Shown here: piece by piece, positions 2,387 through 59,264 of the stretch
Layout of the letters: every line of letters begins with the position of its first letter
How positions within the stretch are numbered: the stretch's first letter is position 1
Assembly (NCBI GenBank): GCA_029935315.1
Contig: JAOZKN010000001.1
Coordinates: 28,713-92,712, forward strand
Source: Desulfocapsa sp.
GTDB lineage: Bacteria; Desulfobacterota; Desulfobulbia; Desulfobulbales; Desulfocapsaceae
Length of the DNA: 64,000 nt
Direction: 5' to 3'
Position numbers and translations under genes: made by a program
The notes under the pieces: model-generated
Databases searched by the model: none
Seen by the model: the letters and a program-made list of their open reading frames with translations, nothing else
Told to the model about the DNA's origin: nothing

Positions 2387-2440
2387 GTAACCTGTTTGAG
2401 TTCAGGAACTGGCTTCAGGTCTTGAGCATATATTGATAAA

Positions 2441-2586
2441 TTCGTAAAAAGTATAAATTCGGATGGCTAAATAAAAAACTTCATATGCGAGGAACTCGAA
2501 TTTGTTGGAACGAAGCGTACTTAGGTACGCGGCAGTGACAACAAATTCGAAGTGACGAAGCAGATGAAGAGTTTTTATGACGCCAT
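2441..2586 (+). repeat. intergenic palindromic element, copy 1 (core 2461-2586 plus 5' extension 2441-2460)
   Basis: Termini GGATGGCTAAATAAAAAACTTCATATGCGAGG / GACGAAGCAGATGAAGAGTTTTTATGACGCCAT are mutually inverted. The apex is GCGTACTTAGGTACGC and the inner stem is GAATTTGTTG/CAACAAATTC. Related to 8988-9134, 22982-23107 and 59266-59450. The element ends immediately before the AGGAG RBS of the next gene. Confidence 0.85.
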
Positions 2587-2598
2587 AGGAGTAAAGTA

Positions 2599-3270
2599 AT
2601 GATAGTTGCAGAACGAAAGCCAATGGCAGAAATCATAGAGATGGTTCAGGACTGTAAGAAAGTCCTGGTACTGGCCTGTCGTGGATGTGTTACGGTTTGT
2701 TCAGCTGGTGGTGAGAGGGAAGCTGAGATTCTGTCCTCTCTTATTCGTCTGGGCATGAAAAAGGGTGGCAAGAGTATTGAGGTGGTAACCGCAAGTCTTG
2801 TCCGTCAGTGTGACCGTGAATATATTGACGAAATGGATCAGTTTGAAGACGACGGTTATGATGCCGTGGTTTCCACTGCCTGTGGTGTGGGGGTGAACTT
2901 TATCTCCAATCTTCGTAAAGACACCATGGTATATCCTGCCTTGAACACCAGTTTCATGGGTGGATCTGCCGAGCAGGGCGAGTGGACTGAACAGTGCGCC
3001 GGTTGCGGTGACTGTGTTCTCCATCTTACCGGTGGTCTTTGTCCCGTTGCCCGTTGTGCCAAGAGTCTGATGAATGGCCCATGCGGTGGTTCTGTTGATG
3101 GTACCTGCGAGATCCATAGCGATGTTGAGTGTGTATGGCAGTCCATTTACGATCGTCTTGGTTCCTTTGGTAAGTCTGCGCAGATGGAAGTTATTGCTCC
3201 TATCCGTGACTGGTCTGCTGCTGGACATGGTGGTCCACGCAAAGTTGTGCGTGATGATTTAACAGTGTAA
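2599..3270 (+). CDS. MetV-like protein (methylenetetrahydrofolate reductase C-terminal domain family)
   Basis: 223 aa with a Cys-rich C-terminus: CAGCGDCVLHLTGGLCPVARCAKSLMNGPCGGSVDGTCE. The CxxxMxNGPCGG motif belongs to the MTHFR_C/MetV family. Confidence 0.7.
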   Translation: MIVAERKPMAEIIEMVQDCKKVLVLACRGCVTVCSAGGEREAEILSSLIRLGMKKGGKSIEVVTASLVRQCDREYIDEMDQFEDDGYDAVVSTACGVGVNFISNLRKDTMVYPALNTSFMGGSAEQGEWTEQCAGCGDCVLHLTGGLCPVARCAKSLMNGPCGGSVDGTCEIHSDVECVWQSIYDRLGSFGKSAQMEVIAPIRDWSAAGHGGPRKVVRDDLTV

Positions 3271-8963: not shown

Positions 8964-8987
8964 CACCAGGGCCTCAACCTTGATGAA

Positions 8988-9134
8988 CTCGTAAAAAGTA
9001 AGAATTCAGATGGCTAATTTTAAAACTTCAGATGCGAGGCGCGTGTTTTTTATTTAATTTCGGCGTACTAGGGTACGTCGTAATTAAATAAAAAATGCAG
9101 CAACGAAGCAGGTGAAGAGTTTTTATTTAGCCAT
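8988..9134 (+). repeat. intergenic palindromic element, copy 2 (core 9008-9134 plus 5' extension 8988-9007)
   Basis: Sequence: CTCGTAAAAAGTAAGAATTC + AGATGGCTAATTTTAAAACTTCAGATGCGAGG ... TTTTTTATTTAATT TCGGCGTACTAGGGTACGTCGT AATTAAATAAAAAA ... CAACGAAGCAGGTGAAGAGTTTTTATTTAGCCATC. It lies between the convergent 3' ends of the UPF0280 gene and rfbD, and touches the rfbD stop. Confidence 0.85.
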
Positions 9135-10015
9135 CAACTGTTGTCAGCTTCGTCGAGCAATTGCCGGCGGTATAATTTGACATAGCTGTCGATATCTTCC
9201 TGCCAGGACGTAAAAACAGAGAGTCCGGCCTCTTTCAGTCGTTTATTCTCAAGGATGGAATTTGCGGGGCGATGGGCTGGTGTCGGGTACTCTTCCGTGC
9301 TGCAGGGCGCCAGGGTATAGGGTACATCCATGGCATCAAGAAAATAACATGCGCCTTCATACCAGGTGCAGGAACCTTCTGCCGTTGCATGGGCGATACC
9401 GATGATATCTGCGTCCAGAGTGACTTCTATCTGTCTGGCCAGGCTGGCTGTCCAGGTAAGAGAGCCGTACTGATCGTTTACCACCTTCCGTTCCTGTGCC
9501 GGATCAGCAAGGGCCAGTCGCAGCATGGTTTTGAGAAAATTATTTCCCCCATGGCCATATAACCAGGCCGTGCGCAGGATAAGAAAATCTGGAGAAAACT
9601 GGGTGATGGCATCTTCTCCAGCAAGCTTGCTCTTTCCATATTCTGATAGCGGTTGCACCAGGTCGCTTTCTATATAGCTCGTGTTTATTGGCTTCTTTCC
9701 ATCAAAAACATAATCTGTGGAAATATGGATCAGCCGGCTTCCAGCGCCAGCTGTAGTCTCTGCCAGGATTTCAGGACCCAGCGCGTTGACACGCCAGGCA
9801 AGTTCTTTTTCTGTCTCGCAGTTGTCCACTGCAGTATAGGCTGCGCAGTTTATGACGATTTCAGGTTGGCGGGCAGTTAACACTTTTTCCACCATCTTCC
9901 TGTTGCCAATATCAAGTTCGCTGGAACTGCATGAGGTGACTTCGTGCTTCTTCGCAAGAAGTGTGCTGAGATCTTGCCCCAGTTGTCCACTACCACCAGT
10001 AATGAGGATTCTCAC
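9134..10015 (-). CDS. rfbD: dTDP-4-dehydrorhamnose reductase
   Basis: [16 protein letters not shown] Rossmann N-terminus with an RmlD-like body. It overlaps rfbA by 4 nt. Confidence 0.9.
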
Positions 10016-16375: not shown

Positions 16376-17593
16376 ATGGATAGTGGAGATACAGCATTTA
16401 TGCTCATTGCTACGGCAATGGTAATGCTTATGACGCCGGGATTGGCGCTTTTTTACAGTGGGTTGGTACGGAGTAAGAACGTGCTGTCCACCACCATGCA
16501 GAGCTTTGTCTGTCTGGGGGTTATCACGGTTATATGGGTTTTGTACGGATATTCTCTGGCCTTTGGCCCGGATGTGGGCCATTTTGTGGGGAATCTGGAT
16601 TTCGCCGGCCTGAAAAATGTTGGCCTGACTCCCGGGCCATACTCAGACACCATCCCTGACCTGCTGTTTTGTGCCTTTCAGCTGATGTTTGCTGTTATCA
16701 CCCCGGCTCTGATCACTGGTGCAATTGCAGAACGAATGAAGTTTTCAGCCTACCTGCTTTTTATTGTCTTCTGGGCTACTTTTGTTTATTTTCCCGTGTG
16801 TCACTGGGTATGGGGACAAGGTGGCTGGCTTGGCGAAATGGGAGCGCTTGATTTTGCAGGCGGTACCGTTATACATATTAACTCAGGCGCCGCGGCACTT
16901 GTTGCCTGTCTTATGCTTGGTAAACGAAAAGGCTATGGTCGTGATGCCATGCATCCCCACAGTTTGCCGCTGACAGTACTTGGTGCTGGCCTGCTCTGGT
17001 TTGGCTGGTTCGGCTTTAATGCCGGTTCTGCCCTGTCTGCAGGGCCAGTCGCCGTGCTTGCACTTATGACTACCCAGGTTGCAACCGGTGCCGGACTTCT
17101 GGCCTGGGTTCTTGCCGAGTGGAAAATGCAGGGAAAACCCACTGTGCTTGGCGCGGCGTCCGGTGCACTCGCAGGTCTGGTAGCAATAACACCGGGAGCT
17201 GGTTTTGTAAGCCCGGTTTCGGCTATGATCATGGGTGGAGTTGCCGGTGTCCTCTGCTACGCAGCTGTTGTTGCCAAGGGAAGGTTCGGCTATGATGATT
17301 CACTTGATGTTGTGGGTATTCATGGTGTCGGTGGATTGTGGGGAGCATTGGCCACAGGTCTTTTTGCCTCCACGGCCGCAAATCCTGATGGGGCAAACGG
17401 GCTTTTCTTTGGAAATCCCGGGCAGTTCGTCACCCAGGCCATTGGTGCAGGAGCTGCAATTGCCTATTCTGTGGTTCTGACCTTTGTGATCTTGAAAGTG
17501 ATTGATCTAAGCATTGGTCTTCGTGTGGATGTCGATGATGAAACCCAGGGGCTGGATGTTACGTCACACGGGGAAGTAGGCTATAATATATGA
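16376..17593 (+). CDS. amt: ammonium transporter (Amt family), copy 2 (tandem paralog)
   Basis: MLMTPGLALFYSGLVRSKNVL, DFAGGTVIHI and GIHGVGGLWG; collinear with copy 1. Confidence 0.9.
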   Translation: MDSGDTAFMLIATAMVMLMTPGLALFYSGLVRSKNVLSTTMQSFVCLGVITVIWVLYGYSLAFGPDVGHFVGNLDFAGLKNVGLTPGPYSDTIPDLLFCAFQLMFAVITPALITGAIAERMKFSAYLLFIVFWATFVYFPVCHWVWGQGGWLGEMGALDFAGGTVIHINSGAAALVACLMLGKRKGYGRDAMHPHSLPLTVLGAGLLWFGWFGFNAGSALSAGPVAVLALMTTQVATGAGLLAWVLAEWKMQGKPTVLGAASGALAGLVAITPGAGFVSPVSAMIMGGVAGVLCYAAVVAKGRFGYDDSLDVVGIHGVGGLWGALATGLFASTAANPDGANGLFFGNPGQFVTQAIGAGAAIAYSVVLTFVILKVIDLSIGLRVDVDDETQGLDVTSHGEVGYNI

Positions 17594-17595
17594 AA

Positions 17596-17632
17596 TTTTT
17601 TACTTAGCCATTTAAATTTACTTTTTACGAGT
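17596..17632 (-). repeat. isolated inverted fragment of the palindromic-element 5' extension/left terminus
   Basis: The reverse complement reads CTCGTAAAAAGTAAATTTAAATGGCTAAGTAAAAAA. Compare 8988-9024, which reads CTCGTAAAAAGTAAGAATTCAGATGGCTAATTTTAAAA. Confidence 0.6.
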
Positions 17633-22943: not shown

Positions 22944-22981
22944 TGTGGATCTCTTAATTCAAGGTTCAAGGCTGAGGGTTT

Positions 22982-23107
22982 GGATGGTTAGTAAAAAACT
23001 TCATATTCGAGGCGCAGAAATTTAAAATTATTTCGGCGTACTGAGGTACGTTGTAATGATTTTAAATTTCCAGCAACGAAGAAGATGAAGAGTTTTTACT
23101 AACCATC
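22982..23107 (+). repeat. intergenic palindromic element, copy 3 (core only)
   Basis: Sequence: GGATGGTTAGTAAAAAACTTCATATTCGAGG ... GAAATTTAAAAT TATTTCGGCGTACTGAGGTACGTTGTAATG ATTTTAAATTTC ... CAACGAAGAAGATGAAGAGTTTTTACTAACCATC. It lies between the galU stop (which it touches) and the cysC start. Confidence 0.85.
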
Positions 23108-23973: not shown

Positions 23974-24225
23974 AGAAATTCCAGAGTAATGATGGTTTCG
24001 TAACAACCTGAAAGCAGGATGATTAAGTAAAAAGAACTCACCTGCATTGATAACACAGGAAGAAAAAATTGGCGATACAACTGGCTATAGTTTAGTACAA
24101 AAATCGTATAAATTCAAAAAGGAAATAACTGTAGAAGTTTTAAAAGCTGATGTAAATAGGCATAAATACTAGTTTTCAGATACTTTATGCAATTTTGTGC
24201 ACTCCTGCGTTCTTTTCACAGAAAT

Positions 24226-25403: not shown

Positions 25404-25480
25404 TGGTACGCCAAGCAGGATTCGAACCTGCGACCTACGGCTTAGAAGGCCGTTGCTCTATCCAGCTGAGCTATTGGCGC
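25404..25480 (-). tRNA. tRNA-Arg (anticodon UCU), CCA encoded
   Basis: Reverse complement: GCGCCAATAGCTCAGCTGGATAGAGCAACGGCCTTCTAAGCCGTAGGTCGCAGGTTCGAATCCTGCTTGGCGTACCA. It folds as a cloverleaf with D stem GCTC/GAGC, anticodon stem ACGGC/GCCGT, loop CT-TCT-AA and T arm GCAGG-TTCGAAT-CCTGC. Confidence 0.9.
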
Positions 25481-42763: not shown

Positions 42764-42940
42764 GATGAGAAAAATAATTATATGGAAAGGTTAAAAACTT
42801 CGTAAGGGTTTTTGCGATGCCATCACGAATAGGGCTTGCCAACAGAGCATTATCCAGCTATAAATAAACAGTTTTAATGGAACATAGTCACATAACTGAG
42901 CGTATTTATATACTGTATTAATTGTGAGAGGAGGGGTCTT

Positions 42941-58775: not shown

Positions 58776-59264
58776 ATGAAGCGAATAGATCAGGTTAAGA
58801 CGGTTGTAACCCCAGTCGATTTTTCAGATAATTCCAAGCTGATTGCTGAATCTGCTGCCTTTATGGCTGGGAAATTGGATGCCTCTCTCGTGCTGCTTTT
58901 TATAGTACAGAAGTTTGAGGATTATTCCGGTTTTTTTGTTCCTCAAATGAATATTCCTGATTTTGAGCAGGATTTGTTGAGCCAGGCAAAAGAAAAGATG
59001 GACACATTTAAGACAGAACTTGAAACCTTTGCCCAGGAACAGGGTGTCTCTAAAGTTATAGGAACAGTGGTTGTGGGAGATGTGGCAGAGGCGATTGTTG
59101 GTTTTTCTTCTGAACAGGAACATGCTCTTATCGCCATGGGAACCCACGGTTACAAAGGGCTTGAAAAAATCATGTTTGGCAGTGTGGCGGATAAGGTAGT
59201 GAAATCTGCATCTTGTCCGGTGCTGACTATTAATCCTTATACCTGTTGTACTGAGAAAGAATGA
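58776..59264 (+). CDS. universal stress protein (UspA family)
   Basis: VVTPVDFSDNS...IAMGTHGYKGLEKIMFGSVADKVVKSASCPVLTI. Confidence 0.85.
   Translation: MKRIDQVKTVVTPVDFSDNSKLIAESAAFMAGKLDASLVLLFIVQKFEDYSGFFVPQMNIPDFEQDLLSQAKEKMDTFKTELETFAQEQGVSKVIGTVVVGDVAEAIVGFSSEQEHALIAMGTHGYKGLEKIMFGSVADKVVKSASCPVLTINPYTCCTEKE

Follow-up and report, generated by a model that had tools for sequence, protein, structure and literature searches.

Among the small mobile repeats of bacteria, Correia/NEMIS in Neisseria, RUP in S. pneumoniae, Chunjie in Geobacter and MITEAba12 are MITEs (miniature transposable elements with inverted repeats), that is, small, non-coding, intergenic and multicopy elements that have terminal inverted repeats (TIRs) identical to those of a resident insertion sequence (IS), a target duplication of fixed length, a long hairpin and a position flush with gene ends. 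The bcr1 repeat of the Bacillus cereus group is also mobile; it is ~155 bp long, has short direct repeats and an unconserved distribution between relatives, preserves its predicted structure through base-pair compensatory changes, and has been shown experimentally to be transcribed (Økstad 2004 and Klevan 2007, summarised in PMC3184786). This report concerns an element of ~165 bp in a 64,000-nt stretch of DNA from Desulfocapsa sp. (GenBank assembly GCA_029935315.1, contig JAOZKN010000001.1, positions 28,713 to 92,712 of the forward strand), the whole of which is here called the window, and in loci fetched from other genomes, which bear labels of the form L091. Very probably, the element is a non-autonomous MITE of the Desulfocapsaceae that depends for its movement on an IS1182-like transposase encoded outside it and acting in trans. 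It has every feature listed above for Correia/NEMIS, RUP, Chunjie and MITEAba12, but belongs to another sequence family and differs from them in its apparently IS1182-like DDE partner, its 4-bp duplication at a TCA-NNNN-TGA-like target, the two tandem TIR-like repeats at its left end, and the heavy covariation and strand asymmetry of its hairpin. With bcr1, the element has in common mobility, a similar size, direct repeats, a patchy distribution and compensatory changes, whereas bcr1, apparently unrelated in sequence, has 5-bp repeats and a fold of two stem-loops, and the present element is known from its sequence alone.

The family element is made up of an outer left terminal repeat, a short spacer and a foldback hairpin of ~126 nt, and it has no coding capacity, since only spurious open reading frames (ORFs) run across it. 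Its TIRs are TGATGGnnTCGTAAAAA … TTTTTACGnnGCCATCA. Family-wide, the left end, TGAT(A/G)(A/G)ACTCGTAAAAA, mirrors, as an inverted repeat, the right end, TTTTTACGACGCCATCA, which is also the 3' end of the hairpin, the element boundary being CCATCA. The left end bears an outer and an inner TIR-like repeat in tandem. A first-pass annotation of the window had taken the 5' module TCGTAAAAAG for an extra of two copies only; it is in fact the outer left terminal repeat found across the whole family. The peptide KTLHLLR, which the same annotation had seen in the spurious ORFs, is explained as reverse-strand translation of the conserved right arm. A perfect 4/4 target-site duplication borders 30 of 49 copies, as against 1.2 expected, and, when the four flanking bases of the two sides are compared, per-position identity is 0.75-0.85 versus 0.28-0.38 in shuffled pairings. 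Beyond the 4-bp repeat, the left-hand sequence is mostly TCA and the right-hand one TGA, and the preferred target thus tends to resemble TCA-NNNN-TGA. In the close element pairs listed, the termini abut in 7 of 11, with a spacing of 4 or 5 nt and in any relative orientation. Two further ideas on target choice were dropped. A site for integration host factor at the right junction (ATCA-N4-T) was discarded by eye, its spacing being one off from WATCAANNNNTTR; insertion into palindromic targets was rejected when the perfect inverted-repeat flanks behind it (TAG_MAG_00006) were judged to be assembler fold-back, and those copies were excluded.

The element is widespread in its family of bacteria. 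A pattern scan of a species-representative genome collection gave more than 118 stretches among the matches listed, nearly all of these from Desulfocapsa, Desulforhopalus, Desulfopila, other Desulfocapsaceae or Desulfobulbales; Desulfopila sp. IMCC35006 (L035) is one of the carriers. A search by nhmmer, with a hidden Markov model built from 42 copies, located, in 864 kb of DNA from Desulfocapsa, Desulforhopalus and Desulfopila, at least 176 copies that do not overlap; none of the 176 lies within a long ORF. The window itself (47.2 % GC, with flanks ~75-78 % identical to loci of Desulfocapsa metagenome-assembled genomes, or MAGs) holds four copies, numbered 1 to 4 by position, and three fragments. 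Presence and absence were compared between species at ~75 % identity, a distance at which exact junctions are unreadable: the site of copy 3 is empty at the orthologous locus in Desulfocapsa sp. MC-05 (L034), and the elements of L025 and L021 are absent from the orthologous window sites at ~10945 and ~650, respectively. Multicopy spread and empty sites in relatives, both of which the first-pass annotation had proposed to look for, were hence found. Searches for a described relative gave nothing. Rfam, at the gathering threshold and at E<=10, has no match that overlaps any window copy, and returns only a transfer RNA (tRNA) gene and chance hits elsewhere; the suspected Desulfotalea-1 motif had no match at E<=10 and is excluded if Rfam holds that motif. 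In the Rfam search the element therefore did not turn out to be a family already described. With copy 2 as the blastn query, neither the PLSDB plasmids nor the INPHARED phages gave a match, and the literature on MITEs and repeats of Desulfobulbaceae and related genera yielded no description of the element. It is a new, so far unnamed MITE family, ordinary as a kind of element, with a hairpin that is unusually well preserved on one strand. The tRNA gene, at 25407-25480 on the - strand (74.7 bits), is the sole gathering-level match in the window.

For the partner, the fetched loci were scanned for longer segments that end in the termini of the MITE and are bordered on both sides by one and the same 4-mer. 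An IS of 1.89 kb was found at 1725-3612 of L091 (CAVSJK010000001.1), with TIRs TGATGGCGTCGTAAAAAG / CTTTTTACGAGTCCATCA, a duplication of AATG and one ORF of 579 aa. Three more copies, of 1889 bp each and with TIRs TGATGGnnTCGTAAAAAG, lie at 470-2358 of L120, L121 and L122, from other genomes, and one of these interrupts a gene. The partner IS is thus present in four genomes, and its 4-bp duplication is clean in three (AATG, CATA and AGAC). The 579-aa transposase matches the Pfam models DDE_Tnp_1_6, DDE_Tnp_1 and DUF772, all above their cut-offs; its relatives number thousands, and the few that are named come from Desulfobulbus, Desulfopila and Desulfocapsaceae. MITE and IS share termini of 17-18 bp, and the DDE transposase would act in trans on the MITE through these same termini. 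The window had been annotated as free of transposase genes, and indeed no relative of the 579-aa protein is encoded there. Beside the solo TIRs in L016 and L075, where a transposase was also sought, only housekeeping genes were found. A short non-coding body, TIRs, a duplication of fixed length, multicopy spread with presence or absence at orthologous sites, and an IS with matching TIRs, the features by which MITEs are recognized, are all observed. Of the initial label 'REP/MITE-like', the MITE half stands by virtue of the TIRs, the 4-bp duplications, the empty sites and the partner IS; the half that refers to repetitive extragenic palindromic (REP) sequences falls, because REPs are without TIRs, duplications, empty sites and an IS partner.

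Several side observations concern the IS. At 1600-3800 of L091, it is nested between a deletion-derivative MITE and a MITE of a sister family, each 4 nt from the IS end, an arrangement that fits a preference for insertion beside existing termini. In L121 and L122, at ~540-600 and just 5' of the transposase start, a leader hairpin (CTCGCAT...ATGCGAG) could cover the Shine-Dalgarno region, and ATGCGAGGCG of that leader occurs also in the left arm of the MITE (CATATGCGAGGCGCG). A good sigma-70-like promoter, TTGTCA-17-TAATAT, lies ~65-100 nt inside the IS; the MITE is without it.

The second main feature of the element is its hairpin. Each of the three clean copies in the window folds into one single hairpin of ~60 bp (-50 to -54 kcal/mol, z = -8.7 to -10.8). 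In an alignment of 71 distinct copies from many genomes, the consensus fold has 31 pairs, 19 of them with double-sided changes; 96.2 % of paired cells can pair, as against 83.1 % in column shuffles, and compensated cells number 247 as against 68, with none of 500 shuffles reaching as high. When the partner is slid by 1-3 columns, pairing falls to 40-54 %. The covariation of the inner stem reported from the window copies therefore exceeds both the shuffled and the register-slid controls and is not an artefact of AT-richness. The proposed apical CGTAC/GTACG hairpin likewise appears in the folds and holds family-wide, CGTAC-N4-GTAC being present in 137 of 176 copies, with a loop of UARR in 101 of those 137. 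Besides the apex (CGTAC-N4-GTACG), conservation extends to the termini and to an asymmetric internal loop rich in purines, where CGAGG faces ACGAAG; close to the apex, T·T and G·T positions are kept in almost every copy and also in the sister family. Small side hairpins or short inserts are optional and occur in some copies, copy 4 included. At its base the stem is AT-rich, T5-6 follows the CTTCAT/ATGAAG stem on both strands, and an A-run and a T-run bracket the stem.

The two strands are not equivalent. G·U pairs outnumber A·C mismatches, which would be G·U on the opposite strand, by 161 to 16, or by 97 to 16 without one fixed G·U, and columns in which at least three sequences have G·U number 12, as against 2 for the A·C equivalent. 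In all 71 copies the + strand is the more stable one, the margin being 11.4 kcal/mol under RNA parameters and 5.0 under DNA parameters, and this asymmetry is equal in copies that lie sense and antisense to genes. From the conservation of the purine-rich CGAGG/ACGAAG loops and the CGUAC-UARR-GUACG apex next to spacer stems that covary freely, we infer that propagating lineages of the element are under selection to keep the hairpin, on the + strand and in the form of RNA or single-stranded DNA. Our own reading is that the constraint falls on element lineages and not on single insertions that serve the host. If transcribed, the hairpin with its A- and T-runs may serve as a bidirectional terminator or RNA stabiliser, a side effect that would make insertions tolerable. 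SPRITE and other terminator-like repeats, and bidirectional intrinsic terminators, resemble the element in that a stable hairpin stands between an A-run and a T-run, giving U5-6 from either strand, and in that they are often placed between convergent genes; the element differs from them in that its runs belong to the TIRs, its stem base is AT-rich, its terminator scan is negative and divergent insertions are as common.

The position of copies at gene ends, noted already in the first-pass annotation, is seen directly at two of the window copies. Copy 2 ends in a TCA (9134-9136) that serves the - strand ORF 9134..10015 as its TGA stop, and copy 4 starts directly 3' of the TGA stop of ORF 58776..59264. 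Among 18 convergent downstream ORFs at the loci sampled, 7 end exactly in the element's terminal TCA. Since the element ends in TGA...TCA, insertion by a TGA stop or by another copy would recreate the flanking triplet, and insertion just 5' of a TGA stop would bring the element's own TGA into the same frame. Such ends, together with a TCA-NNNN-TGA-like target, would leave copies flush with gene ends and ORFs unbroken, and would also give the fixed short spacing between adjacent copies.

A number of points weigh against a MITE moved by this IS and kept in shape by selection on one strand, or against parts of that reading. Mobilisation by this particular transposase is suggested by two things only, the shared termini and the length of the duplication, and the IS copy of L120 has no clean duplication. 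The best NCBIfam model for the transposase is IS1182 (model positions 40-484 of 488), with a score of 148.5 bits, below the curated cut-off of 270, so that the family assignment is loose; the partner shares with the IS1182 family one long DDE transposase that contains DUF772, DDE_Tnp_1 and DDE_Tnp_1_6 domains, a length of ~1.9 kb and TIRs, but with a score that far under the cut-off it appears to be a distant IS1182 relative or a separate subgroup. Derivation of the MITE interior from the IS was tried and rejected, as local-alignment homology ends after the terminal 17-24 nt, which is all that the MITE shares with its partner. The orientation of the element versus genes, in contexts taken from crude ORF calls, is random, with 29 sense, 28 antisense, 23 convergent and 27 divergent copies, or 13 sense and 17 antisense in a stricter set. 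A scan with the consensus terminator model did not call the full hairpin in the clean window copies. No conserved sigma-70 promoter was found in the element, either across the 71 copies or at the left termini of the three clean window copies: TTGAYA, which is -35-like, stands at the left end in 31 of 71 copies and is followed at 16-18 nt by an acceptable -10 in only 5 of 71. A promoter borne by the left end of the element was consequently given up; the sole promoter-like site from the scans of window copies lies inside the hairpin of copy 3. Finally, we know of no need of a cut-and-paste DDE transposon for a strand-specific internal hairpin.

The alternative that survives best takes the complementarity of the stem for a by-product of intramolecular template switching in quasi-palindromes, by which a change in one arm is copied to the other, the hairpin itself being functionless. 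Templated correction of quasi-palindromes is an established mutational mechanism in bacteria, the element, a palindrome in DNA, is also replicated as DNA, the stems of subfamilies differ in blocks and not merely in scattered single pairs, and orientation versus genes is random. Yet template switching should erase non-complementary loops, but both CGAGG/ACGAAG and the T·T and G·T positions beside the apex persist, in the sister family too; nor does it predict the excess of columns with G·U over those with A·C. On balance, we regard it as possible but unlikely.

A stronger form of the selection argument, which we consider doubtful, is that the hairpin is a functional nucleic acid, specific to one strand, with selection acting at the transposon and not the host level. 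What speaks for it is the conservation of the tandem-purine loops and the apex, with covarying spacer stems and optional side hairpins. In one form, a + strand RNA could have the partner IS as its target in trans, transposase expression being one example; in some IS copies, the Shine-Dalgarno region of the transposase mRNA is matched by the MITE arm ATGCGAGGCG. In another, the fold could be a single-stranded DNA structure needed by the IS1182-like transposition machinery. Either form, if true, would add to what a DDE-type MITE is known to require.

That the element is first of all a gene for a structured RNA or a cis-acting RNA module (a small RNA, a 3' stabiliser or a terminator), useful to the host and only secondarily mobile, is distinctly improbable. 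Such a role would account for the strong covariation, for the prevalence of G·U over A·C and the greater stability of the + strand as RNA in 71 of 71 copies, for a purine-rich internal loop that resembles tandem G·A pairs and the UARR loop, for side hairpins that are optional at internal loops as in many RNA families, and for the A- and T-runs that bracket the stem in either orientation; bcr1 (PMC3184786) offers a precedent of transcribed repeats with compensatory changes. However, there is no orientation bias, divergent (promoter) regions are hit as often as convergent ones, and strand asymmetry does not differ between sense and antisense copies, and with these results selection for a host-level RNA was rejected, random orientation in particular weakening any such role. 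Promoter evidence is equally poor, with a -10 downstream of the left-end TTGAYA in 5 of 71 copies and empty scans at the left termini of the three clean copies, and Rfam has no match. The T-run and A-run belong to transposase-type TIRs and are found also in the IS, so that an RNA explanation for them is unneeded.

Spread of a REP palindrome or bacterial interspersed mosaic element by a RAYT (an IS200/IS605-like TnpA), or a folded site like the attC of integrons, where conserved ends flank a variable self-complementary centre, would suit an intergenic, palindromic, multicopy element with a strand-specific fold, but is extremely improbable: REP and attC make no target duplications, whereas the element has 4-bp duplications and 17-bp TIRs that it shares with a DDE IS; it is AT-rich and ~165 bp long, versus the 20-40 nt of GC-rich REP (no search for a RAYT was made); by eye, its consensus termini TGATGG.../...CCATCA lack the GTTRRRY/RYYYAAC core sites; and its neighbours are ordinary core genes, not cassettes.

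The four window copies lie where the first-pass annotation placed them and align with one another over their whole length. Copy 1 (2434..2586, +; nhmmer E 6e-36) comprises the outer left TIR, the spacer and the long hairpin (2461-2586). Its outer left TIR, TGATAAATTCGTAAAAAG (2434..2451, +), shows the motif of the IS termini TGATGGnnTCGTAAAAAG; the inner TIR-like repeat, GATGGCTAAATAAAAAACTTCAT (2462..2484, +), forms the outer hairpin stem with the right TIR; the conserved apex, CGTAC-TTAG-GTACG, is at 2516..2529 (+); and the end of the right arm with the right TIR, GAAGAGTTTTTATGACGCCAT, is at 2566..2586 (+). The copy ends in CCAT, the terminal CA being missing, and the AGGAG ribosome-binding site of ORF 2599..3270 follows immediately. 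The exact protein of that ORF is encoded also by L119 (GCA_029940435.1, JAPOGY010177409.1, 1650 bp), a contig that begins inside the right end of copy 1, so that this assembly broke at the repeat. Copy 2 (8981..9136, +; E 5e-42) is nearest to the family consensus among the window copies. Copy 3 is represented by its hairpin part (22982..23107, +), with a degenerate, decayed outer left TIR region (~22953-22981). Copy 4 (59265..~59460, -; E 2e-19) is old and rearranged; its left terminus is decayed and may reach ~59478, and two extra modules of ~30-50 nt, one in the left arm with a side hairpin (GTGCCCCGCAGG...GGGTGCA) and one in the right arm, an insert of ~29 nt, add sequence to both arms and make the fold less clean. 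The fragments that had been noted alongside the copies are three. One, at 17588..17632 (-; E 3e-4), has the outer left TIR and the inner TIR-like repeat and is cut off after TTTCATAT; another, at 23990..24034 (+), is left-terminus-like, TGATGGTTTCGTAACAA...GATGATTAAGTAAAAAG, and a weak match (E 4e-3). The last is a mini TIR-TIR palindrome, GATGGCATCGCAAAAACCC..GAAGTTTTTAACC, at 42803..42832 (strand unassigned), also a weak match (E 0.12) and a possible deletion derivative of the element. In pattern counts over the window, GAAGAGTTTTTA with <=1 mismatch has 8 matches versus 0.5 expected, and the apex pattern 6 versus 0.04.

Related elements occur at the fetched loci. The sister family, of ~170 bp, has the same termini and the same CGAGG/ACGAAG loop, with an unrelated stem and the apex GTAC-ATRTG-GTAC, and is found at L075 3032-3197, L091 3617-3780 and 5170-5341, L064 2608-2780, L102 3911-4082 and L108 6518-6698. 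Short mini-elements of the form TIR-loop-TIR are at L005 3403-3453, L084 ~984-1030, L071 1243-1318 and L010 4399-4488. In two MAGs, orthologous insertions with the same flanks (L011 1255-1429 and L076 1022-1210) have very dissimilar outer left TIRs (TGATAATCTCGCAAAAA versus TGATGGCGTCGTAAAAAA) and are further set apart by an insert of ~24 nt in the right arm, which suggests inter-copy conversion or re-insertion at the same site.

Many copies lie at contig ends, in keeping with a repeat that disrupts assembly. Inverted-repeat flanks or arms of mixed subfamily were seen in L006, L015, L093, L096 and L104 (TAG_MAG_00006), L085 and L103, the TAG_MAG_00006 copies of this set lying ~115-125 nt from contig ends; these copies look like assembler fold-back or chimeric joins and not biology. 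Typical copies were also met on short contigs binned as Marinilabilia (L030), Sulfurovum (L101), Gammaproteobacteria (L114) and 'Pseudomonadota' MAGs (L020, L021 and L031), and are likely to reflect mis-binned Desulfocapsaceae contigs.

The element is an abundant and previously unannotated repeat of the Desulfocapsaceae, a family of sulfur-disproportionating and sulfate-reducing bacteria. By breaking metagenome assemblies it gives rise to fold-back and chimeric contigs, and it could be used as a contamination marker for mis-binned contigs. Its TGA/TCA termini, set upon stop codons, are relevant whenever gene 3' ends and intergenic signals are read in these genomes. Whether MITE hairpins are under selection, and at which level, has so far been argued mostly from single examples, such as bcr1 and Correia; a clear MITE with an IS partner, many compensatory mutations and a strand-biased fold makes the Desulfocapsaceae element a convenient system for that question.

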